This document shows positions 20,342 through 61,177 of a stretch of DNA of 64,000 nt, piece after piece. The stretch is taken from assembly GCA_051294905.1 (NCBI GenBank), contig CM119372.1:15130001-15194000 (forward strand), in the 5' to 3' direction. The DNA is from Botryllus schlosseri (taxonomy: Eukaryota). Each line of letters begins with the position of its first letter. Positions within the stretch are counted from its first letter, which is position 1. The notes beneath the pieces were generated by a model. The model was given only the letters and a program-made list of their open reading frames with translations, did no database searches and was not told the origin of the DNA. The position numbers were made by a program, and so were the translations under genes.

Positions 20342-22770
20342 ATGTTCAATTTGCAACTGCACAAGGCCATCGTAAGTAAATATATTGCCTCGTTTGACAC
20401 TTCTCATAGGCGCGCGATTTCTCTTGTTGCTTCATTTCATATCAATTTGAAACGTGTTCTACGCATCGAATGTCCGATACAGGTTCGTCAGTATATGGGC
20501 ATATGATCAACATCTATTCATTGAAGTCTAAAGTAACTTCATATCCAGCACCATAACTGCCGCACCCCAAACCCCCCAATTGGGGGGGGCCCGAGCTCGA
20601 AGGGGGCCCCAAATTATTTCGTGAATTAGCATAAATTATAGAGTATTTTTTGAAAATTTATGCGATTTTTTCCAAAATTTTTCGCGCTGCGCGCGATTTA
20701 AAGTTGCCAAATATCTTGATTATTTGGTACTCTTCCCCCAAGAAAAAACACGCAAGATTTATAGAAATGGACATATCGGCGTTGGCCATTAATACACCAC
20801 TACGCACCAAGATATATAACGATTTAGGACTTATTACATGCGACTCCAAGAAGTGTGCCAGAACGATCGGCAGCGCGAAAATCTTAGCCGAAACAGACTG
20901 CCCTTACGCAGACCGAAAACTTCGTTATAGGTACAAAATAATAGGTTTAATTGTCCATAGGCGCCTAGATGACTGGCGCCATATGTTGCTTCCTGTCTTG
21001 GCAATCTGAACCTCAGAAGACAAATACCATCCAGCAGGAAAAAAATATATACCTGTGAAGAAATACCAATTTGAAATCGTGTGCGTCTTTTAGTTTAGTA
21101 CGTTTGAGCGATTCTATATTTTTGATATAGCAGACAGGAGGTCACGAAATAAAATCATGTAACGAAGTCATACCAACGGGTCCGGCCGCCCGAAGATGTT
21201 TAATTGTTATTTACGGGCCCTACAGTTTCCGGTAAATCTGATAACGTGAGCAGAGAGGACAAGATATTGATAGCAATATATTAGCAATTCCCGATCTTAT
21301 TGACCGATTGTATCATGAATTATCGAAAATTTTCGCGCTTCGAGCTGGCTCACTAAACAGTGCAGCTAAGTTCGTGGCAAAAGCGAACACTGTGATGAGG
21401 GGGTCTGTTTATCACCCTATGAGACCCCCAAACCCAAGTTTTTGTGGGGGGGGGGGCGAGGCTGACGAAGTGCTGTTTCGTTCCTGCCAACGGGTATACG
21501 CCCGAAGATGTCTAATTATTATTGGGCGGTCCTACGTTTTAAAACATACCTCGCTCAGCTCTACCGGTAAATCTGATTACGTGAGCAGGGAGAGGATCAA
21601 AATTGATAGCAATATATATGTAATTCCCGATCATATTGCCTGATTCAATCATGATTTTCTGAAATTTTTCGCGCTTCGCGCGTCTAAGCGGGAAAAGCTG
21701 ATTCACTAAACGTACACCCAATGCAGATGTAAAATAGTGTTAAAAAGCGGACAGCCAAAGGAGGGTCTGGGGGGCGAAGCCCCCCAGAAGTTAGGTTTAT
21801 CACCCTATGGGGGGCCCACGGCCAACGTTTTGGGGGGGCCTGACGAAGTGCTGTTACGGGCCTGCATATAACATATAAAACGGATGATTCAACTGTCTGT
21901 ATGATGTTGTTATTACAGGCGCGAGCTCACGCCAATGCCAACAACAACTTCCAATTCGCCATTGGCCAAATAGGACTCGGTCTCAATGTGGGCGGTGATC
22001 ATTCTGGCGGTCACGGTGTCGATGTCGATGTAGCAGACAACACTCTCACCATCGCTGACGCACACGTCGATAGCGATCTGGTAGTCGATGTGACCACCGA
22101 CGGAGGCAAAGGACAATGTGGTGACCTCTTCGCTGGTATGAGCATGAGCGGAATCAACCTCAATCTCGGAAACAACGCCGGTGCTAAAGCAATCGCAGCC
22201 GGCGGACCTCACTACGGAAGCGGCGATGCTATTGCTCACGCCAATGCCAACAACAACTTCCAATTCGGCATGGGCCCAATGAACCTCGGTCTTAATGTGG
22301 GCGGTGATCATTCTGGCAGTCACGGTGTCGATGTAGCAGACAACACTCTCGCCATCGCTGACGCACACGTCAATATAGAGCTGGCAATCGATGTGACCAC
22401 CGACGGAGGCAAAGGCCAATATGGTGACGTCTTCGCTGGTATGAACATGAGCGGAATCAACCTAAATCTCGGAAACAACGACGGTGCTAAAGCAATCGCA
22501 GCCGGCGGACCTCACTACGGATGCGGTGATGCTATTATTCACGCCAACGCCAACAACAACTTCCGATTCGCCATGGGACCAATGGGACTCGGTCTGAATG
22601 TGGACGGTGATCATTCTGGCGGTCACGGCGTCAATGTCGATGTAGCAGACAACACTCTTGCCATCGCAAATGCAATGGCTGACGCCAATGCTAACAACCA
22701 AATCCAATTCGCCATCGGCCCAATAGGACTCGGTCTCAATCTGGTGATCACGGCCTCGATGTCGTTGTAG
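20342..22770 (+). CDS. Two-exon Gly/Asn/Ala/Asp-rich repeat protein (~293 aa); exon 1 20342-20371, exon 2 21919-22770
   Basis: aaaATG TTC…GCC ATC|gtaagt (phase 0) joins ttacag|GCG CGA GCT CAC (phase 0), giving MFNLQLHKAI-ARAHANANNNFQF. Repeats of 309 and 303 bp (103/101 aa) plus a 47-aa unit; C-ending codon bias; GC above flanks. Confidence 0.75.
20546..21864. mobile_element. hAT (Tip100-like) MITE in intron 1 of the repeat gene
   Basis: Same family as 61178-62534 and ~50075-51000 (gccgcacccc…, aagtgtgccagaacgatc, gctgacgaagtgctg); right end gttacgggcctg. Confidence 0.75.
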
Positions 22771-22778
22771 AAGACAAT

Positions 22779-23772
22779 AGGCCTAAACAAGGAGGAATGG
22801 GCGACTTAATATGATACTGCAAACTACCTACTAAAAGACGGACCTACGGGGCTCGTTCACTTTCGGACCAAACTGACTACAGCCTTTCGGAGAAAATGTG
22901 TTTTTGGTCCGAAAGTGTACGAGCCCCGTCCTGGTCCTGGTCCGGTTTCGTCAAATTCAGATTTGATTATTAGGCTTCTAGTAGTTAGGATATGCGACGA
23001 TCTTGCTCGTCGAACTATTCGATATACACCGACATACGTCTGTTTCATACCTGAAAGGAATTGAACTACTGTGGTGCAATTACTTGAAAGTTGGGATGTA
23101 GATGAAGCTATACGAGCAAGTCTAGTATAGCTAGCATCGGATTATCTATCGAACATTCGTATTATTTGAATATGTGAGAGGCGGTAATAAACTTCAATAT
23201 TGCTTTCAGGTCTACATTGATCGCAGTGGAATTTATAACTCCAACACTTTTCGTGTGCACCTTATCAATAGTTAACAGCGCAGGAATGATTGCTAAATGT
23301 AGATCTGCTTCCCATCTGTCTCTGTCTCTAAAATTGACCAATCATTATTTACGCCGGGAGGAGCAGTTTCTATACAATCTTAAATTTGTCAATTAATATA
23401 TAGGCTACCGCTAATTGTCTGTGTAATATACAATTTGATTTTCTGTCGTCTCTTTATTATGATTGCCGGTACAGCTGATTTGCCTAGCGTTCCGTTTTAT
23501 TATTGCATTTTTACGCCACACTTTGCCAATTCAGCTTTCGTTTGGATCTCTTTCCATAATCTGATCATGCTTCATATTGTGCCGAATGGGCACACGAAAA
23601 GTCTTCGAGTTACTAAATTCTATTGCAACGAATCCATTCTGAAAGCAATATTAGTATTTTTGTCGACTATCTGTGCTTCTACTGCAAATCGTGTTAATAA
23701 TGACGGATTTTGCCCAACGTTAGGACATTTTCTAAAGCGACCTTATGATTCAAATTTCATAACGATCGATTG
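22779..23772. mobile_element. Unclassified ~1-kb insertion in the repeat array, containing an 84-bp mini-MITE
   Basis: Interrupts the unit between gacaa and actcttgcc. Inside, 22846-22929 has TIRs acggggctcgttcactttcggaccaaa / tttggtccgaaagtgtacgagccccgt flanked by cct/cct. Confidence 0.55.
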
Positions 23773-24886
23773 ACTCTTGCCATCGCAAATGCAATGGCTG
23801 ACGCCAATGCTAACAGCCAAATCCAAATCGCCATCGGCCCAATAGGACTCGGTCTCGATCTGGTGGTCACGGCCTCGATGTCGATGTCTCAGACAACACT
23901 CTTGCCATCGCAAATGCAATGGCTGACGCCAATGCTAACAACCAAATCCAATTCGCCATCGGCCCAATAGGACTCGGTCTCGATCTGGTGGTCACGGCCT
24001 CGATGTCGATGTCGCAGACAACACTCTTGCCATCGCAAAGGCAATTGCCGACGCCAATGCTAACAACCAAATCAAATTCACCATCGGCCCAATGGGACTC
24101 GGTCTCAATCTGGTGGTAACAATCTCGATGTCGATGTTGATGTGGATGTAGCAGACAACACTTTTGCCATCGAAAAGGCAATTGCCGACGCCAATGCTAA
24201 CAACCAAATCAAATTCACCATCGGCCCAATAGGACTCGGTCTCAATTTGGTAGTCACGGCATCGATGTCGATGTCGCAGACAACACTCTTGCCATCGCAA
24301 ATGCAATTGCCGACGCCAATGCTAACAACCAAATCAAATTGACCATCGGCACAATAGGACTCGGTCTCAATCTGGTGGTAACAATCTCGATGTCGATGTT
24401 GATGTGGATGTAGCAGACAACACTTTTGCCATCGAAAAGGCAATTGCCAACGCCAATGCTAACAACCAAATCAAATTCACCATCGGCCCAATAGGACTCG
24501 GTCTCAATCTGGTGGTCACGGCATCGATGTCGATGTCGCAGACAACACTCTTGCCATCGCAAATGCAATTGCCGACGCCAATGCTAACAACCAAATCAAA
24601 TTCACCATCGGCCCAATAGGACTCGGTCTCAATCTGGTGGTCACGGCATCGATGTCGATGTCGCAGACAAACACTCTTGCCATCGCAAATGCAATTGCCG
24701 ACGCCAATGCTAACAACCAAATCAAATTGACCATCGGCACAATAGGACTCAGTCTCAATCTGGTGGTCACGGCATCGATGTCGATGTAGCAGACAACACT
24801 CTTGCCATCGCAAAGGCAATTGCCGACGCCAATGCTAACAACCAAATCCAATTCGCCATCGGCCCAATAGGACTCGGTCTCAATCT
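23773..24886 (+). repeat. Tandem array block 1: about 9 units of 125/137 bp derived from the coding repeat
   Basis: Unit starts at 23773, 23898, 24023, 24160, 24285, 24422, 24547, 24673 and 24798; includes a duplicated 262-bp (137+125) dimer. Confidence 0.95.
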
Positions 24887-27800
24887 CCCAGCAAACACAA
24901 AACTTATTAAAGATATTTTTTAAACATCTTCCATGAGTTCAAAAGATGTCCTTCAACTATGTGCAAAATATATACATTTGTCGACAGAAATGGATATATA
25001 TAAGATGTCCTGTAGGACATCCTCAAAGATATCCTGATGGACATCCTCAAAGATATTCTGATAAACATCCTCAAAGATATCCTGATGAACATCCTCAAAG
25101 ATATCCTGATAAACATCCTCAACGATATCCTATAATATATTTTTTGCACAACTCGACCCTGTGTGACCCTGAACCCTGGTTGGCTAAACCTGCTATATGC
25201 TGCACTTCACATATGAACGAATACGAATCGTCAGTTTTACAAATCATGTATGGCTTTTTATTCTATATTATACCAGTTCAAAATACAAAAAATGCACTGG
25301 ACAAGACCTTGACGGAAAATTGCAATAAAAATGGATGAAGAATGAAGGTAAAATAACAATCCGTGACACAACAATACGTTAGCAAGAATTGGGCCTTGAT
25401 ACAGAACTGTGCAATCACTTCAGCAAATATTTCTGCATTGGCATTAGTCCATGTTATCGGTATCTGAATCATCAGCCTCCTCGATAACAGTCTTGCTCCT
25501 GTTGTCTCCTTTATCGTCATCCTATAACATATATGAATTGATTACTCTGAGCCAGCTTCAAACATTTCTTTGGTGAACGGGATACTATAGCTAGCTGTAC
25601 ACAATGTACATATAGTATGTTGTGTACCTATTAAAGTTGCGATGTCAAAACATTAAAACCAACGATACAATCAATTCATGTTGCTCTTAAATTATGTACA
25701 ATGACTTCAAGATCGGACATTTTTCGCCAACTCCAAAGATTAATGTACTGAGCTAAATCCTAAATCCATTACGACTCGTTGCGCTGATGCCGTGTACTTC
25801 CACATGAAGAATGCACTTTAGTCCGAGTTTAATGCACACCCTTTCAAGGGCATGTGACTTATGACACTGCCGGAATAATCGGTAACTTCAGCGTCAACTT
25901 GCTGTTATTATATAATCGAAATTATTTTTGTTGCCGTTGGTTGTCATTGCCGGGGGACAAAAGTCACCGTTTCCACTCCCATTTTTGCATTGTTTATTGC
26001 GACACCATACGTGTCGCTACATCTCATCAAAGTCGGATGAAAGCTATATGTAGACTACCCCTGAGCTAAGTTATAAGTTACAAAATTTTCAATTTATTAA
26101 AAAAATTAAATTAATTTTTGAATTTTGCCGTCCATCCCTATGAAATTGTAAAAAAAACAATGCATACCAAATTTGGCGCAATCCCAACCAGTAGAGGAGA
26201 AATTTCAAAACCATAATTTTGTATCTCAACAATTTCACTTCTACACGTTGGAATTGAGCCAAATTTGCCATGCCTCCAGTTCGCCACCGAAATAGCCGGA
26301 CCAGAATAGTCAGACCCAATGTTCCCTCTACTTTTTGACGAGTCTGGACACACTCACCAACTCACTGCGCGGTCCCCTGGACAGCAGTGCGTAACGACTA
26401 AAAAATGACATCGCTTCCGATTTTTTTTGTGTGCAGCTTGAATTTTCTGTTCGCAGAGACCGTGTCAGCACTGCGCAATTGCGCATGTGTGCAGCTTAGA
26501 GGGAACATGGGTCAGGCCATTGCAATCTGAGCCCCCCAAGCGGTACAAATGCGACCAGTGGAGGATAAACTTGCTTCCCCTGTTGAAATGTGAATTGAAA
26601 GGAGTTTGAAATGAGTGATTGATTATTTGCCCAAAAGTTTCGGTGACATTGGTTCCACCGCTAAATCTGAGCAAGTGCAACGAGAGGATCAAAAATTTAT
26701 GCAAGACCGACAATATTGACAAAATTAAATATTTCCTATAAATTTTTTTTTAATTATATTACGTCAAAGTTGCATTACGCGATTACAAAATAACTGAAAA
26801 TATCATGAAGTTTGGGAACCACTGGTATAGTGTTCTGAAGATGAATGGTAGCAGAGCTTGAGGTAGCAACGATTCACTTACTGTCAAATAATATGATAAA
26901 GAGCACAGCTGTTACACAGACGTCAACTTCATAAACAAAATTACCTTGCAAGCTCCAATAACAGTTAGAAATCCACCCACTTTAACTGTAATTGTTTGAT
27001 TCTCGACCGTAGGATGAGCCACTTTACATGCTCCTTTAAAGATAATATAAGTAGATCAGGGGCGGCATTACAAAACAATGCAGCAAATCGCAATCTGCGC
27101 CAGCGGTAACAATCTCTCTCGAATGCGATTACCGCAGTGTCAAAATTGGTATTTCAAAACATTCCCGACCCAACACAGAGTTTCACAATCAATGCACTTG
27201 TTTGTGATTTCGCCATGTCGGATCTCAGTAAAAGATGACTTCAAACGAGGGCTTATAAGGCTGTGTGGTCAGCAACAATTTGCAATTATGCTTTCACAAA
27301 AACGGAAATCAAAATACCATACCTCGGTAAAAATGCTCTCCGTTATTGAGGAATTTGTAATTACGATTGTGATATTAGTAACAACTTACGTTTAATAGTC
27401 TTGTAAAGAGTCAAATTTGTTCAAAGCATATACCTGAAGTACAAAATACAATTGATGATAGTGGTTTGTGCCAGAATGAAAAATAACTTCCATCAGTTCA
27501 GTTTATTATTAAATTTTAGGTACTCAATTTAGCCCAGCACTAACAAAGTTAGATAGACATCAATTAACTTGAAGGAAAGGTATTTGGGGTACTGCATAGC
27601 TTGTCTTGATCGCTGCCTTCCGAACAGTTGCGGCTTGGTGAAATCGACATATACCGTAATTTTCCATGTATAATGCGCAAAATTTTACCGATTTTTTGCC
27701 CTAAAATAGTGGGGTGCGTATTATACATGGGTACAGCAAGCCTTGGGTTACTCGGATTAATATCAAGAAGTCTGGCCACAATAAATCACACGAAGCACTA

Positions 27801-30800
27801 AGAAAATTTCAATGAAGTTTATTATATAATTTAGCTTAATTTACAAAATAACTTTGGACCACAATTCCAGCTTGGGCCTTCTCGAAGTGGAGGGTTTAGG
27901 GTGCGGCCCTGTGTTTAGTGTTCCTTTCCGTCTTTGCATTTCTGCTTTCGGCGGTCTTTTTTGACATGCCCGTTTATCGTTCATGGAGGATGTCTCATAG
28001 TAAAAACGAGCTCTTATTGACTTGATTTACGAAGAAACGTAGCCTATCACGAAACAATTTGAAGCACAGACCGTGTAATGCGTAATGTGACAATGGCAAC
28101 AAAGAAGGTTTGAACTAAATGGAAAGAGTGACTTATTGTGATTTAAATTGTTATGACATACTTTGCTACATTGGCTTTATGTTGAACATGGATCACGCAT
28201 GCGAGCTTGCGAGAGACGTAGGCTGCGTAACTGCGGTATATTTCCGTTCCGGCCCAGTTTATAAGCTTACGGTTAAATTTTCAAAAGTAGGTTTTGTGTT
28301 TTGAATTTCAAGAAATGGACACGCGGGCCGCTCAGAATGGTTTGCGGGCCGCACTTTGGCCAAGTCTGAGTTAGATAGTCCGGCAAAGTTTGCTCTAATC
28401 AAGAAAATCATACCAGTTTAGACTTCTTGCAATCACAGTTAATCGAGTTCTTTTCCAGTTGTTCCAGATGAGATTTGACAGGGGTCTTCAATAAGATCTT
28501 CCAGCAAGATTGGGGTTGTGGTACTGTGTTTTTTGAATCGGTGATGATGTGACCTTTACTGAGATTCATCATCTGGTTGATCTGCTTGGAGCAGAGGTCC
28601 ATCATCTGGTTCATCTCTAACTTCAATTCTTTGATATCTTTACGCATCAAAGAAATTGAGTGGTCACTGTATGCAGATGTTGGAGTTGATGGTGTGCACG
28701 GAGCAGCTAAAAAATTATTTGAATATAAGAAAGCTGGATTAATCATATGTGATAATCTTACCAGCACTTTGTAACAGGCCTCGTTGTTGACAAGTCAGGA
28801 TTTTTAAGTTCAACATTGCTTACAAATGAAGGAGCGTCTAGAAAACAGAGCGACGCTATAACTCAAATTCGAGAATGAATCAAAGTGTTACGAGCTTACT
28901 GCATGGGTTAGTTCCCTGCAACTGGCCGCTACATTCAATGTTGGAATCATGATGTTCTTGAACACTCTCCGCATGATGGCAAACTTGCATTGCAAGCATC
29001 ATTGAACACAGCACCCTTGCTTGTCACACTTTTATTGCCAGAATCAGGAGATGGCCGCATTCTTAGAATTGGTATTAGCATGCCTTGTGTCTGAATACTT
29101 GGATTACTTTTCTTCTTTGAAGGAAACACATCATCTACAAAGTATGAAAATTTATATATGAATATTCTGTGTACAACATATTAGGCAGAATAACAGAGTA
29201 TATACCGATACCTTGATCATCAGTTGAAACAGAATTATCCTAAAATTTTTTGGGCGGCTGATGTTTTCGTTTAGACTGTTGTCATTCTTCATATTCAGAC
29301 AATGAAGAGGAGGGCAAGCTACTATTGTCCACAACTTCCTTCATGTCATTATAAGCCTTCTCCCATACATCTAAAACAGATGGATAATAATATAGTTGGC
29401 AAGGTCCCAGATTTGTACACACTACTGGATTTTTAATAAGCACAACTATAGAATTACTCAAATTTGAAAACTCGCAACTAACGACAGGCGCTCTTTAGTT
29501 GTTTGGAAACTATTACGGCCTAGTATTTTTCCAAATGTGCATCTAGAACTAGAACTACGGTACTGAAAAAACCGTTCGTTAGTTGTCCGTCAACTAACTA
29601 AATAAGCAGTCTGTACAAGTCTGCAATGATATTTGGTAGGCAAACCTTCGCAAATTATGAGTTTATACTTACTGGATGAGCATTTGATCCGGATTTTCCA
29701 CAAATACCAATTGCCCTTGTCATGTTTTCGTGGCTTCTTGTTTTTCGCCTCATTAGTGGCCTTCTTTGCTTTCGTCTGTGCTTCCACTGTCATATTATAT
29801 ATCTGGGAACTATCAAGTCTTGGCTGAGCCCACAAGCGCCACACACACTACACAATTTAATTATAAACAAAAGTACAAAAACATTCAATCACAATGAATG
29901 ATTTGAGCGACAATCATCTGATGATATTATATAATCCAGTACTGTCATAATAGCTTATGATATTCGCAAAAGTGCAAACCAAGTCCTATATACTTTGCGA
30001 CATTATACCATACACCATAATACCTATGTTTCACATTAAGCATATATAAATTACCATGTACAGTTCAGTTTTCAGTAATCCTCTGAAGGAATATGGTTAG
30101 TTGAGCCTAAAAATACCACGATTAATTCCAGAACGCAACTAAACCAAACATTCAACTGCAGCTGTAAGCCGCCATTACGAGAGCGCTTTGTCTGCCAGAA
30201 ATATATTTCGCGCCGAGACTTGTGTTCGCGTGGGAGAAATGGCCTCTCGTTTACACTCCGGAGCCGGAGCCGGAGTCGTAGCAGGATTTCAGCGATACAG
30301 TACAGCCGGACTGGATGCGGATTCTGAATTTGTTTCGACAGTCGGATTTTAGTAAGATGCTTAATTATAATCCTAAATACTATATCATGATTTTGGCAGA
30401 AGTTTGTTGGACGCAAAACTGGAAATTCCTCAGCCGGATTTTGCGGACTTTCAAATTGCTACCTAGAGCTGGGCTAATATGAAATTGAAGTTTAGCCTAC
30501 AAAATCGCAACAAACAGCGTGGAACTAGGTGAAACACTCGGTAGTATAGATAACTAAGGTAAACCCAAGGTAAACCTTAGTTATCTATACTCGGTAGTGA
30601 CACTATAGGTGACTAAATCGCCCTATAAGGGTAAAAATTCATTATAATCTACTGTACATTTATAAACGCCACTCTACCATAATAGGAAGCAATATTCGAA
30701 TTTGATATTTCTCACAAATAGATTTTCAGCATTCGACAAAATTTAGCCAAGAAAAAGTTGTGCTTCAGCACAAGGTATGCACGATAAAAAGATATATTCA

Positions 30801-31115: not shown

Positions 31116-31118
31116 CAG

Positions 31119-31542: not shown

Positions 31543-31606
31543 CTGCTTAGCGTTAACGCAAGATATAAGCAGATCGCCAGACGTACGTATGCGAATGCTT
31601 TCCGAA

Positions 31607-31654
31607 CAGTGACGTGCGGTGAGGTTCATGGCTGGTGAGGCACGGACCCCCCTC

Positions 31655-31686
<32 letters not shown>

Positions 31687-34473: not shown

Positions 34474-34501
34474 TTCATTAGCATGAAGCAGACATGCTAT
34501 C

Positions 34502-35276: not shown

Positions 35277-37166
35277 ATGCTATCCATTGAAGTGGCTTAT
35301 TCAGCAACTCTTCCAGGCTTGTAATGCATCCATTATGTTTTCCTGTCATGGATGCAGTGCCATCAGTACCGACAACTGCCAGTTTATCTTGCAATTCTGT
35401 ATCTTTTATTGCATTGAATAGATGTTGAGCTATGGTTATGCCCTTTCCATCTTAAGGAGAAAGGTAGGTGAGGTAATAACTCCCTGGCTCACCAACTACA
35501 GTATAGTGTTCTTCCAATTGAAGAGATCTGTAGTACTTCTCGTTTGGACCGTGCATAACCATTTGTGTGGCATATTTACGACCATCAAAGTACATACCAT
35601 CCACCATACTGAAGTTTTGTTGCTCTTCTTGCCGTAGTGCCTCTCTGCATCTGTCACGTTCTCTTCGTAACTTGCTTCGGTCAATCACCAAATTTTTATC
35701 ATGATCGGTAACCAATCCAACATCTACCAAAACGCTGTTAGCAGCTGCAGCTGCAGCTCGGTCCGATATTTGAAATCTTTCACACATTCTGGCAAGATTC
35801 GGCCATTTTTTTCGATTCTGGGTTGGGAATTCAGTTGATTTGGATGAAGAGCTGGAAATATTGGAAAGGTGACTGTGAATTGTGGAAGAATCTGTGCTTG
35901 TTGATTCAAACTCTGAGTCATGCCCAGCATACAGTTCGACCTCCATTTCACTTTGGGCTGCGGGTGCGGAAGTTCTGGCGTTCAGTTGTGATGTTAACCG
36001 GCGTGCAAACATTTAGTCAGATGAATCCAAAGGCACGATACTATCCAGACATCTTCCAGCACGTGGCCCCTTTTGATCATTGTAAAATTTCCAATCCTCC
36101 TCAGTCATTCGCAACTTATGCTGTTTTTCCAACTCTTTTCGTTGATCCTCATCTGTACAGAAGATGTCATACAATTCATCTACATTGGATAAAAAAATTG
36201 CTTGCTTTTCCAAGTACGATTTAGTACCCATATGTCATAGATTTCTTTCGCAACTTTTGACGCAGCTTTTTGAGTGCGAAAGTTCTTAAAGTGGAGCATT
36301 CTCTCTATCACTTGCCGTTTTGTGGGCAGTAAACCAGGTGGAAACTTTTCACAACCAGTAAACTTTTCGCCACCATGCCAAATCTTGATATGTTCTCCAC
36401 TTCGTCTAGTTCGCACCATAATTGTGATCATAAATCCAATAAATCCTACGATAGGCTACTTTGTAAAGTATTTAGGTGTAGCGTAACAATCTGTAAAAAC
36501 AAAACATGGCTTATTAAGAGTAAATAACTGCACTGTACAACGTCAAAATTTGGAAAAAATGGCGATTTTACTGTTTTTTGGCTATAAATCGCTTTGTGTT
36601 CACTATAGAGAAAACTTTCCTCTTGAGACAGATAGAAACATGATGTTTCCGCAGATTTTGAGCTATATATCATGACTCTACGACCAGCGGTTGCCGAGAT
36701 GGGCCATTTTACCCCCCCACGCACAGAAATTGGGGGGTTGCCGGCTGGAAAATGGGGGTAATCCCCTGAAGTCACTTTTTCCTGAAGTTTTAGGTCATTT
36801 GTCAGGATTGAGGAAGGCCTTTTTTGGATTTGAAAAAAAAAGTCATTTTCACTCCACCCCGACCAATTATCTACCTGTAGCGGAGACAATTACGATCTCC
36901 GCACGCGGCGACGATCACTCGACGAATGTATGTGATGTAGATGTAACAGACAACACTCTTGCAATCGCAACACACAGTTGCGAGTAAACGCCGTAGCGAA
37001 CGGACGTGCTTCTTCGAGCGGGTAATTAGTTGAGTAGGAGCTTTCGATCGGCGACTTCTGTCAGCTGAACGAGCATCGTACGGACTCTGCTTCAATTAGT
37101 AAGGAGGATTTACCATTCGGAAACACGCGACTACGGTATAAGGTGACTTGTGAAAGCGTGTTATAA

Positions 37167-38459
37167 ATGTCACAAGGAAGAGGGGCGGTAAAACGCCCCG
37201 CCGAAAATTCTACTGATGAACCTGCGCCAAAGGAGTCAGCTTCTAATGGATTAAGTCGATTCAATGAGCATTCTGTAGTTATAACGGGTATCAAGAAGCC
37301 AATCCGTCGTCAAAATCCTTTAGTCATCAACAGGAATTTGATCAAGATATTAGGAGGTTCCTACACCGAGATACGTGTTCTTCCATCAGGAGATCTCTGC
37401 GTAAAATGTGCAAACAGCGGACAGGTGGCCAAACTATTATCATGTAATGATCTGGGGACAAAAGAAAATAAGATTGAGGTCAAAGTGGAGCTTTACAAAA
37501 CCAAACCACCGGAAACGCGCGGAGTCATCTCCGACGTTCCAATGGATCTTAGTGAAGAAGAAATACGACAAGCACTATCGAATGACAACGTTACATATGT
37601 CAAAAGGTTGCCATACCGGTCAAAGGAAGGCGTTATTCCAAGCAGGTCGGTTCTTCTATGTTTCTCAGCGAACATGCTTCCCACTGTCGTACATATAGGT
37701 TTTTTGCGGTTCAAGACCAGGATATACAACCCACCACCCTTGCGCTGTTACAATTGCAGTCGATTCGGCCATAAGGCAAAGCATTGCCGTAGCTCAGCAC
37801 GGTGCACTAAATGCGGTAATAATCATGAATACAAGAACTGCACGAACCAAGCCAATTGTGTTAACTGTGGCCAACCACATTCAGCTGGCTACGCGGGTTG
37901 TGATAGGTATCGACAGGAAACTCGAATCCATGCTATTATGGCGAACTCCGATGTCAACTACTGGACTGCCAGAGGAATCGAACAAGAACAGAGACAAATC
38001 CCAAATGTTTTATCTCAGAACGAATTCCCACCATTGCAAAAAGACAGCAGTGACCAAACCTCAAACCTGGTACTTCACCAGCAGCATCGTAACGTCGCTG
38101 TAAGATCAGCTCCAATCAGTCGACAAGTCACCTCCGCAAACCATCCATTATTGCCATCGAATGATAGCATAACCTTATCAACATCGGCGCTGTTCAGCTT
38201 TATCGCAGGCGTATTGAAAAGTACAATAAAATCGATCACCGAAGGACAGGAAATTGACATTGAAAAGGTCATATCGGAGACCGCACAGAAGGAACTTGGA
38301 ATAGGATTTCCCGGATTGCAACTAAATACCGCCAATCGAGAAGAAGCCTCAAGCGTCGGCCGACACAGGACGTACGGCGAACAAAATTCACCACAAACTA
38401 CCGACGAGTCTTCTAATGCAATGGACCTCACACAAGCTCCGCCTTCAAAGGTAAATTAA
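37167..38459 (+). CDS. LINE ORF1 (gag-like nucleic-acid-binding protein)
   Basis: Three zinc knuckles: CYNCSRFGHKAKHC, CTKCGNNHEYKNC, CVNCGQPHSAGYAGC. Confidence 0.92.
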   Translation: MSQGRGAVKRPAENSTDEPAPKESASNGLSRFNEHSVVITGIKKPIRRQNPLVINRNLIKILGGSYTEIRVLPSGDLCVKCANSGQVAKLLSCNDLGTKENKIEVKVELYKTKPPETRGVISDVPMDLSEEEIRQALSNDNVTYVKRLPYRSKEGVIPSRSVLLCFSANMLPTVVHIGFLRFKTRIYNPPPLRCYNCSRFGHKAKHCRSSARCTKCGNNHEYKNCTNQANCVNCGQPHSAGYAGCDRYRQETRIHAIMANSDVNYWTARGIEQEQRQIPNVLSQNEFPPLQKDSSDQTSNLVLHQQHRNVAVRSAPISRQVTSANHPLLPSNDSITLSTSALFSFIAGVLKSTIKSITEGQEIDIEKVISETAQKELGIGFPGLQLNTANREEASSVGRHRTYGEQNSPQTTDESSNAMDLTQAPPSKVN

Positions 38460-41400
38460 AAATACTCCAATGGAATTGTAGGAGCATTTATAGAAAAATC
38501 CCGGAATTGAAATATTTCATAGAAAGACTTGATACAAAACCTGATGTACTCGCACTGCAGGAAACTCATTTGGTTAATAAGTACACTCCTAAAATCAAAG
38601 ACTATACCCTCGTTAGGAGAGACCGTGACATCCATGGCGGTGGCATCTGCTTCTTTGTCAAATCGAATCTATCATTCGTTCAATTAGATGTAGAAAGTGT
38701 ACACCCAATAGAGATTCAAGCCATCAAACTTGACCAGATTACTGTTTTGAATGTTTATATCCCTCCAAATCGCAATCTATCGCGCATGCTCCTCGAACGA
38801 TGTTTTCGCCCCTTCACCACAAAGTGCATTATAGTCGGAGACTTTAACGCCCATCATCCCTTGTGGAAGAGCGACCGAATAAACAGTTGCGGTAGACATC
38901 TTTACCATGTTATTGATACCAAGGATTTTGTGGTAATAAACACCACTATCCCGACCAGGATTGACATTTCATCCCAATCTCCCGACAATAGTTCATTATT
39001 AGACCTGACAATATGCACCAAAGACCTGGCCCATAACGTCTCAACAGACGTTACTGATTATCTGTTGGGAAGCGATCATTACGTCGTGCTCACAGAACTC
39101 AGCGTAACGGTTGATACTTCCCAGACATACACGAAGAGTTGGTCATTTCATCGCGCGGATTGGGATAAATTCAAAAGCCTCTGTAGTGAGCGATTCTCCG
39201 TCGCCTGCGATACACCTCTAAAAATGGAGGACATATCAACTATCATTATAGACGCCGCAGTGAAAAGCATTCCTGAATCTAGACCGGTCTCCAAAAGCTC
39301 CGTTCCATGGTGGAATAAAGAGTGTTCGAAATCCCTTCGCCTCAAACGTGCGGCCTTCAAAAAGATGAAGCTGACCTTCAACACGGAGGACGTTATCAAC
39401 TTCAAGCGTCGACGCGCACAAGCAAAGAAAACTATTCTCGCCGCCAAAAAGCAATACTGGGAAACCTTTTGCAGCACCCTCACTGAAAATTCAAACTTGG
39501 CGCGTGTTTGGCACGTAGTCAAATCCATGAGCGGAAGTCGCACCTGGAGTCGTATTACTTCCCTTAAAGTCGGCGATCAAGTGTACACAACAGAGCAGGA
39601 TAAAGCAAATGCACTGGCATCCTACTTTGCGAGTGTCAGTAGTGATGATAGCCTTCAACCAGAATTCCGACATAGACGCGATGCTATGAAGCAAGCAATG
39701 CACCAACGCTTATGCGAAATGCAAGATGACACCACGGGAATAAACATCGAATTCAGTGTTTCGGAACTTATACAAACATTAAAGCCTCGTAAGAATACAG
39801 CTCCAGGCCACGACCGAATATGCTATCAAATGATAATGAATTTACCACCCTCCTGTCTAAACCTTCTATTACGATCCATTAACGAGGTGTGGAAGACAGC
39901 TCAGTGCCCATCTGCATGGCGTCACTCCATCATCGTACCTATCCCGAAAAACGGTCAAATTCAAAATTCAATAAAGAGTTACAGACCGATCGCTCTCACC
40001 AGCAATATGTGCAAAATAATGGAACGGCTAATCTGCAAAAGGCTATATTGGTGGCTTGAAAACCGAAAACTCCTCCACCCATCTCAAAGCGCATTTCGCA
40101 ATGGCAGGTCAACTAAAGATAGCGTGATGGCTTTACATGATGATCTCTACAAGGCCTTGGGAAATCAAAGATCCGCAATCTGTATATTCCTGGACATCGA
40201 AAAGGCCTATGATCGTGTTTGGAGGGACGGAATAATAATCAAACTGCAAAAAATGGGCTTATCCGGAAAACTTTTGCGATGGCTTCACAGCTTCTTACAC
40301 AACCGCACATTTCAGGTCAGAGTAGGAAATAAGGTGTCGGACAGTCATAAAGTTGAAAACGGCATTCCTCAAGGAAGCGTTTTAAGTCCATTACTGTATA
40401 CCGTAATGATGAACGATCTCCCCGAAATGATTAAAACTAATATAAACGTATTTGCAGATGATGTCTGCATCTGGGAATCTGGCCTCAGTTTTGATAAAAT
40501 AAGAACCGCGATCCAAGAGTCATTAACCGTAATAGAATCATGGTGCAAGAAATGGGGACTCAGTCTGAATACTAATAAGACCGAGGCAATAATTTTTTCG
40601 AGGAAAAGGAAAATACCTGCTGTCAAACTAACGCTCAACCATTCCTATATTAGATTTGTCAAGCAGTACAAATACCTAGGAGTCACTTTTGACTCTCGGC
40701 TGAGCTACGCACATCATTCCAAAGCTGTGGTCAAGAAATGCACAATGCGATTGAATGTGCTGCGCTGCCTGTCAGGAACTAATTGGGGTGCTTCCAAATC
40801 TTGTCTCCTGATTCTGTATAGGGTGTTGATAAGGTCGGTCATCGAATACTGCATGGAAGCGTACATGTTCTCCCCGAAGTATGTCAGAAGACCAATCGCC
40901 ACTATCCAGAATACCGCGCTCCGAATATGTTGCGGAGCAATGAAAAGTACCCCGATATACGCACTGCAACATTCGTGCAGAGAAATGCCCATGCACCTTA
41001 GACATCTCCAGGCATGCTTAACATATAGGTCGGTCATTCTAGCTCACGATTCCCATCCATGTCAATCAATTACACAGGAATCATGGCATGAAATCTTTCC
41101 TGACTCGGAACATTTTATTACATTTAACATGCTGACGGAACGTGCTCCTATGTTTCAGAATTTCGGTATAGCGAAACGAAATCTCCTGCCAACGCCACCA
41201 TGGAAAGCAATGAAGTACTCGATTGACTTGAAAATCGAATCATTGATTAAAAACATAGCACATCCCGAAATCGTCAAACGGGAGTGCGAACAGTATATTG
41301 ACGATCACTATGCTGACTCTATAAAAATCTATACAGACGGGTCAAAGAACGATAACAAATGTGGAGCAGCCTTCTACGTGGACGAGGAAAATCACTCCTG

Positions 41401-42165
41401 GAACCAGAAACTAATGGGCGTATTGTCGATATTTTCAGCAGAGCTTATTGCAATAAGAGCAGCGTTGGACTGGGTTATGGTAAATTGCTTTCCAAACTCT
41501 AACATCACAATTTTTCAGACAGCAAAAGCGCTCTGACAGCAATTAACACGACCACTACAACGGATAACATCGTCATCGACATACAAGAACGCAACAACGC
41601 CTTGGCCTTCAATAAGAAATCAGTTTCGATGGTATGGATACCTGGACACAAGAATGTTGGTTTCAACGAGAGAGCTGATCAACTGGCGCGAGACGCAGCG
41701 AACGATCCACCAAACAACATAGAAAAACAGGACATATCTACGAACGAAGCCAGAACTCTGATCCACGAATTCTGCAAAACCAAATGGGATTATCACTGGA
41801 CTCAAATCGACATTGAGTCGCAATATCGACGAATTTTTTCAAGCATCAATGATCATACGAACATGCCGCGGCTCTCCCGTAGAGAATCGTCCATTCTCAT
41901 TAGGATGCAAACGGGGCATTGTCGACTAAACGCTCATCTGTATAAACTTGGACTTCATGAAACGGGACTTTGCGACACGTGTAATCAACTAGAGACGCTT
42001 GACCATTTTGTTACTTCATGCAATCGCTACGACCGAGCCAGGGTCCATCTAATTCAATCCGCACATAGACACAATATTCCACTTTCGCTTAGTTCGCTAT
42101 TGAAAAGTCCTCACACGCTACAATCACTGTTAGACTTTGTTATATTGTCAACTAGAGACTTATAG
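38417..42165 (+). CDS. LINE ORF2: AP endonuclease, reverse transcriptase, RNase H and CCHC, with one frameshift at 41511-41515
   Basis: ILQWNCRS, LQETH, GDFNAH, SDH (EN); YRPIALTS, FLDIEKAYD, GIPQGSVLSP, FADD (RT); YTDGS, AEL, (F)SDSKSAL, WIPGH, NERAD (RNase H); CDTC…HFVTSC. Five T where six would restore the frame. Confidence 0.92.
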
Positions 42166-42244
42166 TTGTATTATTGATCAAAATAGGCATGGTGCAAAAG
42201 GCCTCAGTTAGCCGAGAAGCACCCCCCCCCCCTATACATACATA

Positions 42245-44333
42245 CTTGCAATCGCAAATGCAATGGCTGACGCCAATGCTAACAACCAAATCCAATTCGC
42301 CATCGGCCCAATAGGACTCGGTCTCAATCTGGTGGTAACGGCCTCGATGTCGATGTAGCAGACAATAAACACTCTTACCATCGCTGACGCAATGGCTAAC
42401 GCCAACCCTAACAACCAATTCCAATTCGCTATCGGTTTAATGGGACTCGGTTTCAATCTGGCGGTCACGGCCTCGATTTCGATATTGCGGACAATGTTCT
42501 CGTCGCAGACGCAATGTCTGAAGCCAACGCAATGGCAAACATCAACGCTAATAACCAATTCCAATGGGCCATCGGCTCAATGGGACTCAGTCTCAATCTC
42601 GCGGTCACAGCCTCGATGTCGATATTGCAAACAACGTTCTCGCCATCGCACACGCAATGGCTAACGCCAACGCTAATAACTAGGGCAAGTTTTTGCAACT
42701 TTTGCAACATTTTTTTACAGCTTCTGGCAGCTTCCTAAATACTCGTAAGATATGTAGAATGTTGTTTTAAGCTGTTTGAAGGAATCTTATAGTGCAACTT
42801 TTTGCAACTTTCGTCCATATTTTTCATGCAACTTTTTCGATTTTTCATGTAAGTATTTTCGATTTTAATGAAATACACGACCAAATTCGGCTGAAACACC
42901 GTAAATCAGCACCGAAGTAACGCTTTTACGGGTATTTCGGGAGCTGAGCCGGAAAAATGACCTTTTTTTAGTCAACCGAGCAAAATGTGGTCAAAATGCA
43001 ACTTCTGCAACTTTTTCCGAAAATAAATGAATAAATGCAACTTTCCACGGATTTGACTGCAAAAAAACTTGCCCTACTAATAACTAATACCAATTCGCCA
43101 TCGGCCCAATGGGACTTGGTCTAAATCTGGCGGTCACGGACTCGATGTCGATGTGGATGTAGCAGACAACACTCTCGCCATCGCATACGCAATGGCTAAC
43201 GCCAACGCTACCAACCTATTCCAATTCGCCATGGGCCCAATGGGAATCGATCTCAATGTGGACTGTGATCATTCTGGCGGTCACGGCGTAGATATCGATG
43301 TGGCAGACAACACTCTCGCCATCGCTAACGCAATTGCTAATGTAATGCCAACGCTAACAACCAATTCCAATTCGCCCTGGGCTCAATGGGACTCGGTCTC
43401 AATGTGTACTGTGATCATTCTGGCGGTCACGGCGTCGATGTCGATATAGAAGGCAACACTCTTGCAATCGCTGACGCTATTGCTCACGCCAAAGCCAACA
43501 ACCATTCCCAATTCGCCATCGGCTCAATGGGACTCGGCGTCATTGTGGAAAGTGATCATTCTGGCGGTAACGGCGTCGATGTCGAAGACAACACTCTTGC
43601 AATCGCTGACGATATTGCTCACGCCAAAGCCAACTAACACGATGTAGCAGACAACACTCTAGCCATCGCAAACGCAATGGCTGACGCCAATGCTAACAAC
43701 CAAATCTAATTCGCAATCGGCCAAATAGGACTCGGTCTTAATCTGGTGATCACGGCGTCGATGTCGATATAGAACACAACACTCTTGCAATCGCTGACGC
43801 TATTGCTTACGCCAAAGCCTACAACCAATTCAAATTCGCCATCGGGCCGAAGGTACTCGGGGTCAATATGGAAGTTGATCATTCTGGCGGTCAGGGCGTT
43901 GATGTCGATGTAGAAGGCAACACTCTTGCAATCGATTCGCCATCGGCCCGATAGGACTCGGTCCAAATCTGGTGGTCACGGCCTCGATGTCGATGTTGAT
44001 GTCGATGTAGCAGACAACACTCTTGCCATCCCAAATGCAATGGCTGACGCCAATGCTAACAACCTAATTCAATTCGCCATCGGCCCAATACGACTCGGTC
44101 TTAATCTGGTGGTCACGGCGTCGATGTAGCAGACAACACTCTTGCAACCGCAAATGCAATGGCTGACGCCAACGTTCACAACCAAACCTAAGTCGCTATC
44201 GGCCCAATGGGACTCGGTCTGAATCTGGCGGTCACAACCTCGATGTCGATGTAGCAGACAACACTCTTGCCACCGCAAAGGCAATGGCTGACGCCAATGC
44301 TAACAATCAAATCCAATTCGCCATCGTCCCAAT
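42245..44333 (+). repeat. Tandem array block 3: more diverged mix of 125-type and in-frame 141-type units
   Basis: Same core (gccaatgctaacaaccaa…ggactcggtctcaat…gtagcagacaacactc); units at ~43200-43630 retain the gatcattctggcgg (DHSGG) segment. Confidence 0.9.
42681..43076. mobile_element. hAT MITE (396 bp) in the array
   Basis: TIR tagggcaagttttt / aaaaacttgcccta; perfect TSD ctaataac. Confidence 0.9.
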
Positions 44334-44670
44334 CAGAGATGGCCACAGTCCGGTTCAGGAGCCGGAGCCGGAGCAGGATTTTGATGAATTTTACTGTGGC
44401 CGGATCGGAGCCGGATTCTGAAACTGCCATATGAGCCGGATTTTAACAGGATTTGATATTCATAACAAATATTGGGTGATGAAGGTTGAAGATATCTTAT
44501 ATTCAATTAAAAAAGCTGCTTCGATATTATTTCCGTAGTTAAATGCATTCATTGCTATTGATCAAGCCCAGGCTGGTTCCGACAATGAATGACAACGTTG
44601 AAACCGCTGATACCGGTCACGCCGTTGAGATGCGTAAGCAACATTAGTAAAGTTTCTATAATGATGAGAT

Positions 44671-46076
44671 CATATACTTCGTTTCCATGCTCGGCCGATG
44701 GGCCCATTTTCGAGAGACTCGGCCGACGAACGAGAGAATTTTGTTGCGCATTTACAGTGATGCACACCCACGTCGGCCGACTCGTCGGCCATCTAGTAAA
44801 TCCTTCGGCTTAGCCCTTCGGCCATGCTTGCGCTGTGTCTTCGATTAGCTAATTGGTATTCGCTACTTACAATACACTTTTCGTATCAAATTAACCATGG
44901 CTGCACTCCGGACGGATCTTGGACGCCTTGAGAAACCAAGAATTATGATCGCAACGGAATTTAGTAGTACCGGTACTGCTACGAATTACCCGTAGGCTAC
45001 CGAAATCTTCGCGATCTGATCACATACGCTGCTGCCACAATTCGAAGGTTTGCGTTCTATGGTGCATGGATACAATACAAACTATACCGCTTGACCACAA
45101 ACTAGGTGAACTTATTCACATTCCCTGGTAAGCAAATAATCGACAGGACACTGGACGTTCATGTCTGAATCATGACGACGAAACAGTAGTACCGGTAGAC
45201 TACTGGAGAAGTTACTATTCTGTGCTCGAAATTATTGGAACACGATATCCCATATCTATATCCCCCACATACTAAGATATGCCACCAATTTTCATCTTTT
45301 ATCCATCTTATTTTATCTTCTGTTAGTTTTAAGCAATTGGTTCATCGTGACCATTTTACATGTTGGATGCATTTAGTGTTCAAGGTCAAAGCGGGTTGTT
45401 TGATTGAATGACCGCTACAAGTCTTTTCGGCTCATTCCTACCGAGTCATTTATCGCAATCTTCTGATTATTATGAAACTGTTACTGAGTAAGTAAGCCAA
45501 AAACGTCATCGCGATCGCTTCGCCGGGCGAAGTTCGCCCACCTAGTTCGGCCAAGTCACGGTTGGGTTACGTCTGCTCATGGAAACACGGCCGACATGTA
45601 CAACGCATGCGTCATGGCCTTTCGGCCGACCGTCGGCCGAGCATGGAAACGAAGTAATAGTGTCCTATATGGTGTCGACACAAGCAAATCGCACGGTTCA
45701 ATGAAATTGTATCACGTCACAGTTTCCATTTGGCTACAGGCAATTTGACGGTGATTTTTGACCGACTTGCCGAGCATCAAATTTGATAAAACGGGTATCA
45801 ATCGAAAGCTGCCGCCGTACTGATTACGAAAATATAAATTTTATTCCGCTCGCGGCCCTGGAACCCCCACAATCAGCCTCTAATTTTTCATTGTTATGGA
45901 GATTGGCATTGGGACGCAACAATACTGTCTGGCTCCCTTTTTCTCGAGCACCTGTCTCGTTTCGCTAGACAGCATTGTTGCCATTGCCAGCATTGTAGCC
46001 AAATGGAAACTGTGACGTGTAACAATTTCATTGAACCGTGCGATTTGCTTGTGTCGACACCATATAGGACACTATG
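44671..46076. mobile_element. P-element-like MITE (CATAG…CTATG), its left TIR split by another MITE
   Basis: 7-bp TSD atgagat (44664-44670, 46077-46083); ~80-bp TIR arms at 45657-45738 and 45994-46076. Confidence 0.7.
44675..45656. mobile_element. MITE with 3-bp TSD (ata)
   Basis: TIR tacttcgtttccatgctcggccga / tcggccgagcatggaaacgaagta. Confidence 0.8.
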
Positions 46077-46121
46077 ATGAGATTACTGCTGGATGAGATG
46101 GGGACGAAGGCAGGCTCTAGC

Positions 46122-46156
46122 CAAAGTCACTCAACTGTCATAGTTGAGTGACTTTG
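46122..46156. mobile_element. 35-bp hairpin micro-element
   Basis: caaagtcactcaact-gtcat-agttgagtgactttg flanked by gctctagc/gctccagc. Confidence 0.55.
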
Positions 46157-47090
46157 GCTCCAGCAAGCGAGCTGCCGAAGTGTTTGTTTACCTCAGATAT
46201 TGATTCTTATCCTTCCGGTTCATCAGCCATTAGGGTACTTGATATCAGTTGTCAGAATGTCAGAAAAGCGAGGTGTCGGTGTTGTTGCAGACTGCAGAGG
46301 TAATTGGTGGTTCTGATTTCTGATGTCATTTGGAATGATTGTGTGGTGTTGTAACGTATGAATATATGCTGGCATGGTCAATTGGTCATGTTTATGATTT
46401 CGGAAACACACTAGAACTGAAATACCACAGGTACTCTCTGATTGATTGTGCACATTATCATGCTGATTATATAATATTATATGTATTTCCTATTCATTGC
46501 TCCTCTCTCAAGTGATCATTTTGATTGATTCATCCATTTTGTTTGATACATGTCTATTCTGTGAAAATTTAGTTCCATTCTTCAGTAGTACTATAGGCCT
46601 AGTTGTCTTGGCCAAGTCACAATGCACAATATCTGATTTTGTTGTTGGTTTCATGGCATGCCTGGGTTACTATGTCTGCCCTCTCCGTAAAGCAACTAAT
46701 ATTGCCTTCTCTGTTATCACAGTCTTTTTAGCTCATTTCCCCTGCCTAGTTCCTACTACTCGCATTTATATTCAAGATATATACCGTACCTAACATTATT
46801 GATTCGAAATGTGATATAAATAAACCCTTGTAAGGCATTACTTGATACTAATTTGTTGAATATAATGTTCATATCTGTTTTGCAGGCTATATTTAATGTG
46901 AAATAGCACTAAAGCAATAGCAGGATTTTTTCGGATCCTAATTTTGTTGCTCAACTGTCGGACTCCGAAATCCTATTTGACTGTCGGATCAGGACGGATA
47001 CGGATTCCCAAAATCTGGAATCCGCCCATCTCTGGTCCCAATAGGACTCGGTCTCAATCTGGTGGTCACGGCCTTGATGTCGATGTTGAT

Positions 47091-61098: not shown

Positions 61099-61177
61099 GT
61101 GTGTAATGAATTAACCAAGGCTGAATTTAACGATAGCTTTATTTTAGAATTATGACTGTTTTGTGGTTAGGTACACC

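Follow-up and report, generated by a model that had tools for sequence, protein, structure and literature searches.

A probable minisatellite of coding origin in one aberrant member of a multicopy ascidian gene family

A two-exon gene copy and the interrupted array behind it

The window analysed here is a 64,000-nucleotide stretch of Botryllus schlosseri DNA (contig CM119372.1, positions 15,130,001 to 15,194,000). It holds a copy of a two-exon gene, followed by a tandem array that is broken up by insertions (Table 1). Predicted exon 1 has no hydrophobic signal-peptide core by inspection, and its splice was not found among the joints listed (15 of 395); the exon 1 region is multicopy in DNA run X1 (26-29 contigs). 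The dispersed element in the intron is missing from other copies of the family, based on a DNA joint 20541>21867 with a contig depth of 130 in run X1. Exon 2 is preceded by the acceptor TTACAG at 21913-21918, and its ORF (21919-22770) closes with LVITASMSL and the stop codon TAG at 22768-22770.

Table 1. Features of the gene copy, the array and its insertions (positions in the window)
Feature	Position	Strand	Details
TATA-like box upstream of predicted exon 1	20279..20285	+	identified from sequence; putative function
Predicted coding exon 1	20342..20371	+	10 codons, MFNLQLHKAI; phase-0 donor GTAAGT
High-copy dispersed element in intron	20545..21864		further copies at 50081-50996, 61177-62534
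Exon 2	21919..22770	+	103-aa repeat, 101-aa repeat, recombinant 47-aa unit, start of first short unit, 9 out-of-frame codons, TAG
Crossover interval	22630..22668	+	left, long-repeat alleles; right, array alleles; 13 diagnostic sites
Site of 16-bp loss, first short unit	22740..22741	+	TCAAT/TCATT near-repeats 16 bp apart
995-bp insertion splitting first short unit	22778..23772		TA..TG ends (no intron); inner palindrome 22846-22929; AATAAA at 23186
Block 1	23773..24886	+	~9 short units of 125/126/137 bp with 262-bp dimer; mean pairwise divergence 7.5%
6.2-kb insertion	24887..31118		CCCAGCAAACAC terminal inverted repeats; inner 24-bp and 71-bp tandem repeats
Block 2	31119..31543	+	3.3 units of 128 bp, 99% alike (recent amplification)
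5.4-kb compound insertion	31544..36933		holds element with 306-bp inverted repeats 32984-33289, 36554-36859
Stranded piece of array unit	36934..36970	+	37 bp
Full-length LINE	36971..42244	+	ORF1; endonuclease, RT, RNase H (Pfam PF14529, PF00078, PF00075)
Block 3	42258..42680	+	older short units, three with several long-repeat alleles kept
0.4-kb element	42681..43076		inverted ends; 8-bp target duplication
Block 4	43085..44333	+	diverged mix of four 16-bp-keeping units, short units and mosaics; three motif-frame stops
2.7-kb element	44334..47034		CAGAGATGG inverted ends; 8-bp target duplication
Final truncated short unit	47043..47090	+	joined via GTTG microhomology to inverted copy
Inverted long-repeat fragment	47091..47652	-	1.8 units, 86% identical to exon 2

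A sequence-only reading had described 22680-47090 as a satellite. Tandem repeats do lie there, but repeat DNA accounts for 3,394 of the 24,411 bp (13.9%) and the remainder is six insertions of 0.4-6.2 kb. The ends of these insertions are non-GT..AG, and three have clear target duplications inside units; the LINE, for instance, sits inside an array unit with a 13-bp target duplication. The 0.4-kb element is presumably hAT-like, and two minus-strand ORFs of the 5.4-kb compound insertion had no match in Pfam. The units of 125, 128 and 137 bp and the 262-bp dimer reported in that reading are real: the monomers run head-to-tail, with TRF periods of 125 (8.7 copies), 262 (3.9), 128 (3.3) and 141 bp (3.5), and units of 137 bp at 24092, 24354 and 43951. 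The mean divergence in blocks 3-4 is 18.9%. No exon 1 for the inverted long-repeat fragment was found in the window.

The monomers are non-coding, with stops in tandem translation and omega of 0.83-1.9. A large, highly repetitive array was not found: there are 26 units, the longest block is 1.1 kb, and the DNA depth of the short unit in run X1 is low (476 summed, versus 10,000-38,000 in five of the six bins wholly within exon 2). Thus the proposed conversion of a coding repeat into a satellite stands insofar as a non-coding tandem array came from a coding repeat, but the product is a minisatellite of modest size, confined to one locus and riddled with insertions, and falls short of a large satellite.

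Descent of the array and loss of the frame

The RNY codon fraction in the motif frame is 0.59, compared to at most 0.42 across 5,000 shuffles, and thus the array descends from a protein-coding repeat. Diagnostic sites yield the series 309>141>125>262 bp, the intermediates being preserved distally, with ancestral 309>141 junctions in block 4 at 43470 and 43793. In a tree of 29 units, in which the compound unit at 43805 was disregarded, 3 of the 25 inner branches are well supported, and the order of events rests on other evidence.

The short unit had been attributed to a fixed 16-bp deletion that itself ended the ORF. Indeed, after the in-frame 141-bp unit (22582-22722) comes one that lacks 16 bp between 22740 and 22741, and the ORF ends at 22770. 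The loss is real, and 22 of 26 units are short; however, the 16 bp are kept (GATCATT) in the remaining four, at 43267, 43413, 43554 and 43877, and the deletion is therefore not fixed. The order of events also differs from the one proposed. The exon's 141-bp unit carries long-repeat alleles at 10 of 10 sites and then array alleles at 3 of 3, switching between 22630 and 22668; it is thus most likely a recombinant with a derived array unit. What truncated the ORF was most likely this recombination, with a unit that had already been shortened, rather than the founding deletion.

We propose that the parent was a multicopy ascidian gene whose second exon was a coding minisatellite of 303/309-bp units. 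About 165 bp would have been lost in frame between GACGC and GATGC, a junction still present in the array, to give a 141-bp unit that was then copied in tandem. One copy would subsequently have dropped 16 bp between TCAAT and TCATT, placing all later DNA out of frame. The 125-bp form may have been amplified by unequal crossing-over or conversion, and exchange is indicated by three mosaic units (u22537, u43680 and u42266); slippage may have yielded the 137, 128 and 262-bp variants, and a derived short unit was probably joined onto the third long repeat of the exon, producing the present ORF end. Finally, the six insertions entered the array, and its end became fused to the inverted fragment.

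The protein motif had been described as legible in every unit. One -1 shift per short unit does read through, but block 4 has motif-frame TAA stops near 43635, 43707 and 44189 as well as indels (+5, +4 and -40). The motif is still readable because the young units are only 2-8% apart, and where the units of a repeated DNA are young, a readable motif does not point to selection.

Constraint, expression and rival explanations

The array appears to have no coding role and to be drifting. The dN/dS comparison in the motif frame, which the sequence-only reading had called for, gave no sign of constraint: blocks 1-2 have 5 synonymous and 26 replacement variants, with 27% synonymous expected if neutral (omega ~1.9), and 23 of 75 variants are synonymous among 19 short units (omega 0.83). 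These counts omit three of the 22 short units (42440, 42564 and 44330) owing to truncation or misprojection. None of the 31 variants of blocks 1-2 is a stop, an outcome with a chance expectation of 73%. The excess of conservative substitutions claimed for blocks 1-2 was not borne out (mean BLOSUM62 -0.12 versus -0.44 neutral), since replacement changes are no more conservative than chance (p=0.18, and p=0.67). The length variants described for these blocks were recovered (+12, +3 and +1, plus -1, +2 and +21 at insertion edges), and three are independent indels away from those edges. Off the insertion edges, the GATGTC tract has indels of +/-6 or +12, as slippage there had been suggested to produce, while the seven that fall outside the tract are +3, +4, +1, -3, +18, +5 and -40, or three in frame versus about two expected; two 2-bp indels were left out as artefacts of the unit cut points. 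The codon test is weak, because the long coding repeats themselves have an omega of 0.47-1.36 (10 pairwise comparisons, few changes per pair) and hence offer no clean control for purifying selection.

Taken as a whole, the locus is probably a case of neutral decay, that is, a coding-derived minisatellite in a single aberrant copy of a multicopy ascidian gene. Counted against this reading are the lean to constraint in blocks 3-4 (19 of 55 variants synonymous, omega 0.68, p=0.11) and on the long-to-short stem (6 synonymous, 9 replacement), the array-type Ile codon at 21972 in exon repeat 1, and the intact state of exon 1, the splice sites and 283 codons of exon 2.

The RNA data comprise ~6% and ~3% of two runs from other individuals, possibly without the array, and cover 23773-23990 of it; within that part, the check for array transcription found a depth of 0 at 23883-23990 in both X23 and X21 (2/2 part-read runs). 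A run-level search listed no RNA run as a match. This bears on the suggestion that repeated -1 ribosomal frameshifts or RNA editing translate the array into a long protein of 42-residue repeats, to which we attach a negligible probability. One -1 shift per 125-bp unit recovers the motif frame, but any unit of length 3n+2 would behave likewise, and an XXXYYYZ slippery heptamer is present at 0 of 14 junctions tested. Moreover, the first short unit is broken by the 995-bp insertion, which lacks GT..AG ends and which contains the sole GT[AG]AG in 21919-24886. No spliceable route into the array was found, Rfam had 0 matches in 20000-48000, and the non-intron insertions together with the zero RNA depth give no indication of a continuous mRNA through the units.

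The array might instead be a selected store of silent cassettes from which gene conversion supplies variation to the expressed family. The mosaic units show exchange, the family is multicopy and transcribed, and exon repeat 1 has at 21972 the Ile allele found in most array units, along with a Gln allele that it shares with one block-4 unit; 6 of the 8 private sites of that repeat match some array unit, although two of them (alignment columns 17 and 163) are also found in repeat 2. Shared rare alleles are expected, however, because 28% of all possible variants are present in some array unit, and neither frame nor codon constraint is seen in the donors, which span less than half of a long repeat. 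RNA reads at 21963-21972 have non-array letters (3/3 in X23, 2/2 in X21), and the short unit has no depth in the DNA of organism B. Array-to-exon exchange here thus amounts to one crossover and one shared majority allele, neither of which is in the five RNA reads. We regard a selected store as very improbable, and by the terms that the sequence-only reading had set for itself (omega, GATGTC indels, slippery heptamers and RNA depth) both it and recoding largely fail.

The long repeats might belong to a mobile element, as tandem repeats within it, and not to a host gene, so that the entire cassette travels as cargo. This is unlikely, even though the exon 1 region and the repeat unit are both high-copy, no protein homologue is known from our searches and omega between the long repeats is weak. 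The repeats have a strong single-frame RNY bias, indels that are all in frame and a canonical exon-intron layout, the RNA reads over 21978-22739 are one-strand in X21, and no enclosing terminal repeats were detected; a host gene may nevertheless have been captured inside an element.

A further explanation takes the gene copy to be alive, its protein having a shorter C-terminus, and the array to be neutral DNA appended on the 3' side, which occasionally recombines into the exon and alters the protein tail. It agrees with most of the preferred account, the difference being the status of the gene. The copy keeps the intron and promoter of its multicopy parent, with exon 1, intron and acceptor present as in an unprocessed pseudogene, and its lesion is a frameshift of the tail only. 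The TATA-like box, ATG, GT/AG sites and 293-codon ORF are all intact, every long-repeat indel is a multiple of 3, the 3' end of exon 2 is array-derived, and the AATAAA of the 995-bp insertion could terminate a message. On the other hand, all mapped RNA reads have a non-window, paralogue-type letter at six exon-2 sites (22048, 22122, 22147, 22224, 22245 and 22565), although these reads come from other individuals and from 3-6% of each run. Omega between exon repeats 1 and 2 is 1.36, 11 of the 19 exon codons that differ from the read majority, among 40 of 790 rows listed, are replacements, and the depth in X23 is 0 at 22740-22866. We therefore consider a living gene possible but doubtful, and put the chance that the 293-codon ORF is still functional below even.

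The parent family and comparable systems

DNA depth suggests that the parent is an ascidian family of two-exon genes, transcribed and numbering roughly ten or more. The family is also found in a second organism (organism B), and its repeats of 101/103 residues are rich in Gly, Ala and Asn. A word-indexed protein search with 274-aa and 103-aa queries gave 0 matches, HMMER against 1.84 billion representatives gave 0 at E≤0.001, sequence and profile searches of PDB sequences gave 0 at E≤10, and the single Pfam match, Trypco2, was below its cutoff (21.5 bits versus 24.2). The best ESM Atlas scores, 0.78 and 0.85, were to unnamed bacterial clusters and are leads only; none of 593 and 234 pattern matches in metagenome and viral contigs was confirmed. 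AlphaFold models had a mean pLDDT of 40.1 and 43.6, too low for a fold search, and a structure run on four copies of one repeat scored 0.02. A connection with the NACHT gene at 59014 was considered and rejected: the rest of the window yielded no repeat-like peptide (best E=4), and neither did 34 NACHT relatives (best E=4.9). Mostly non-subscription literature, at abstract level, held no prior description of the protein.

Untranslated copies that lie near an expressed gene and are homologous to part of it are known from trypanosome VSG, Borrelia vls and chicken pseudo-V genes. The array is likewise untranslated, adjacent and homologous to part of a gene, but it is without codon or frame constraint, has six insertions inside its putative donors and has no demonstrated expressed recipient. 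In the available portion of one account, satellites are born from local tandem duplication, with rDNA spacers and transposons named as seeds (PMC5615363). The present array resembles the first step of that model, a short tandem repeat at one locus with sub-repeats, slippage and a higher-order dimer; here, however, the seed is a protein-coding repeat, and the 26 units give no sign of spread or large amplification. No close precedent for a satellite that grew from a coding repeat after a frameshift was found in mostly non-subscription literature at abstract level.

Among repetitive structural-protein gene families under birth-and-death, the Argiope MaSp spidroins, as far as the accessible text describes them (PMC9779670), share multiple copies, long coding repeats, intragenic homogenisation, inter-copy conversion and truncated, stop-bearing, little-expressed paralogues with the family described here. 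The latter differs in having no terminal domains or signal peptide and an out-of-frame unit that was re-amplified, and no relation in sequence is shown. The sea-urchin Sp185/333 (SpTransformer) genes, in the part of the source at hand (PMC5103432), also have two exons, a short first and a repeat-rich second, in multiple copies and an unstable genomic setting. Their exon 1 encodes the signal sequence and pseudogenes are nearly absent, whereas here the 10-codon exon 1 lacks a hydrophobic core by inspection and decayed fragments are present. No homology to Sp185/333 was found at E≤0.001, apart from one sub-cutoff Pfam match, in libraries that may not contain SpTransformer proteins.

A bolder reading, which we think has only a slight chance of being correct, is that this is an undescribed family of at least 10 two-exon genes encoding cytoplasmic, beta-strand-prone, self-assembling Gly/Ala/Asn/Asp repeat proteins, perhaps immune scaffolds for NLRs, that diversify by recombination of repeat units, with dead out-of-frame arrays feeding live exons and the locus keeping each step from coding to higher-order repeat. 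If so, the array-derived tail of exon 2 would represent array sequence feeding back into live exons.

With the 309, 141, 125 and 262-bp stages side by side at one locus, the array offers a worked example of a coding minisatellite losing its frame, continuing to turn over and becoming non-coding. Of greater promise is the parent family: these ascidian repeat proteins, encoded by transcribed genes in multiple copies, have no homologue in the libraries searched; if array sequence did enter expressed paralogues, this would be an unusual route of diversification for a chordate.

Composition and history of the array

The tandem array at 22680..47090, derived from the coding repeat of exon 2, is a small, broken minisatellite. 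Downstream of the 141-bp unit and with insertions excluded, its 26 units sum to 3,394 bp, only 13.9% of the span, and the remainder is six insertions, none of which (0/6) has GT..AG ends; introns in the window are of the GT-AG type. The sequence-only reading described a satellite created by a fixed 16-bp deletion. Indeed, the deletion and the unit sizes are real in the sequence and in the TRF periods of 125, 128, 141 and 262, and the array is a tandem non-coding derivative of a coding repeat. It is, however, too small for satellite DNA, and the deletion is not fixed, since 22 units are short and 4 of the 26 retain the 16 bp.

Features of the array, its parent gene and the surrounding window
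Feature	Position	Size	Remarks
Predicted exon 1	20342-20371	10 codons	Set by TATA-like box, ATG and GTAAGT donor
Exon 2	21919-22770		103-residue repeat, 101-residue repeat, 47-residue (141-bp) unit, then 16-bp loss (between 22740 and 22741); stop codon downstream of the loss, 22768-22770
Blocks 1 to 4 (array pieces between insertions)	23773-24886; 31119-31543; 42258-42680; 43085-44333		
Insertion 1		995 bp	
Insertion 2		6.2 kb	Small tandem arrays near its ends: 24 bp (25002-25135), 71 bp (30786-31079)
Insertion 3		5.4 kb	
Insertion 4, full-length LINE	36971-42244	5.3 kb	13-bp target duplication; ORF1, endonuclease, RT, RNase H, (TACA)n tail; second ORF divided between two frames near 41503-41536
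Insertion 5		0.4-kb element	8-bp target duplication
Insertion 6		2.7-kb element	8-bp target duplication
Inverted-repeat element	32984-36859		306-bp inverted repeats, 95%; minus-strand ORFs of 344 and 186 aa, putatively transposase-like, neither with a Pfam match
Inverted long-repeat fragment	47091-47652		Joined to array end via 4-bp microhomology
Plus-strand array/inverted parent-repeat fusion	47070-47110		Resembles a template-switch junction
Further small tandem arrays	49561-49800; 49947-50044	120 bp; 29 bp	
Inverted duplicate pair	8294-12061; 15215-19817		Multi-exon gene stretch, about 85% identical
Open Lys/Glu-rich exon, kept in both duplicates	8756-9466 (+); 18610-19347 (-)		No Pfam match
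Dispersed element, three copies	20545-21864; 50081-50996; 61177-62534	1.3 kb	Very high depth in DNA run X1
Near-palindrome (87%)	55795-55990	196 bp	Probably a small inverted-repeat element
NACHT/NOD2-winged-helix gene	59014-61155		17 unnamed relatives, 32-54% identity; closest named relatives in the ascidians Styela clava and Clavelina lepadiformis

Thirteen sites distinguish the long repeats (303/309-bp coding units) from the short units. Blocks 1-2 carry nearly pure short-type alleles, three deletion-bearing units of block 3 retain several long-type alleles, and units at 43195-43482 are mixed in their alleles and still have the 16 bp; left/right mosaic units also occur. The ancestral junction that made the 141-bp unit out of the long repeat, with GACGC running directly into what follows GATGC, is absent from the exon but kept at 43470 and 43793. 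The 141-bp unit of the exon is long-type at 10/10 sites and then short-type at 3/3, switching between 22630 and 22668. This allele pattern suggests that units arose in the order 309>141>125>(137, 128, 262), that old stages were left behind at the far end of the array, and that a derived short unit recombined onto the exon. The order rests on the allele pattern because the unit tree, with 3 of 25 branches supported, is too weak to test it; divergence of 1.6% in block 2, 7.5% in block 1 and 18.9% in blocks 3-4 agrees with it. The array resembles the initial, local phase in the birth of a satellite as set out in PMC5615363, except that the seed here is a coding repeat.

Tests of neutral decay, recoding and exchange

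The dN/dS comparison proposed by the sequence-only reading, made in the frame of the parent protein repeat (motif frame), went against constraint. Thirteen units of blocks 1-2 hold 31 distinct variants, 5 synonymous and 26 replacement, with 27% synonymous expected (omega about 1.9). The corresponding counts are 23 and 52 for 19 of the 22 short units (omega 0.83), and 19 and 36 for six units from blocks 3-4 (omega 0.68, p=0.11). The test has little power because the long coding repeats themselves give omega 0.47-1.36 over 10 pairs; that range, together with the 6 synonymous and 9 replacement changes on the long-to-short stem, weighs against a neutral reading, and the stem changes hint at a coding past for the 141-bp stage. 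The supposedly conservative substitutions show no excess of mild replacements (p=0.18 and 0.67), and both Met/Ile variants coincide with the long-type versus short-type alleles, which makes them look like a reshuffling of older alleles and not like fresh conservative changes. The 31 variants make no stop, an outcome expected 73% of the time; block 4 has three motif-frame stops. Away from insertion edges, blocks 1-2 have only three independent indels (+3, +1 and a +12 that lies in the GATGTC tract); array-wide, 3 of 7 indels outside that tract are in frame.

If the array were recoded by -1 shifts, each short unit would again read the motif, but one such shift restores the frame of any unit of length 3n+2. 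No slippery heptamer was found at 14 junctions tested, and the first short unit is split by a non-intron insertion carrying AATAAA at 23186. RNA depth at 23883-23990 is 0 in the 3-6% of each RNA run that was read (X21 and X23), both from other individuals that may lack the array. The exon has exchanged sequence with the array once, at its 3' end, and exon repeat 1 carries one array-majority allele, at 21972. A selected reservoir of cassettes is unlikely: 28% of all possible variants are present somewhere in the array, and 5/5 RNA reads at 21972 carry other letters. Such sharing is expected from ordinary unequal exchange. The array is probably a genuine minisatellite of coding origin that is decaying neutrally.

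The parent gene family

The parent of the array is coding and multicopy. RNY codons make up 59% of the motif frame; the remaining two plus frames have 16% and 12%, and none of 5,000 shuffles exceeds 42%. Every indel among five long repeats is in frame. In X1, depth is 1,700 on one contig over repeat 1, 16.6 on a contig identical to the window locus and 130 on one that links 20541 directly to 21867 (the intron without its insertion). Summed depth is no copy number, and single-contig ratios, used instead, point to roughly 100 repeat units spread over at least ten genes. The long repeat is also present in a second organism (contig depth 149-236, versus about 3-14 for the other pieces listed from that organism), in which the short unit has depth 0 at 23883-23990.

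Exon 2 has reads in both RNA runs, on a single strand in X21 over 21978-22739. All RNA reads carry a non-window letter at six exon-2 sites (22048, 22122, 22147, 22224, 22245 and 22565) and therefore come from other copies or alleles; the splice of exon 1 to exon 2 is not among the 15 joints listed of 395. The parent protein is rich in Gly (about 17%), Ala (14%) and Asn (12%). We found no homologue in Pfam above cutoff, 1.84 billion representatives, PDB or contig scans, no resemblance to the neighbouring NACHT protein or to relatives of that protein, no confident AlphaFold fold and no description in a literature search. The gene at this locus resembles a member in decay of a family of repetitive structural proteins, of which the spidroins are an example (PMC9779670), and the two-exon layout recalls Sp185/333 (PMC5103432), but the parent gene lacks the signal peptide of the latter and any homology to it.

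Judged from window positions 20342-22770 and runs X1, X14, X21 and X23, the family, with its short exon 1 and coding repeats of 303/309 bp, appears to comprise at least ten copies and to be transcribed from other copies. Found in a second organism too and still unnamed, it is a better lead than the array itself.
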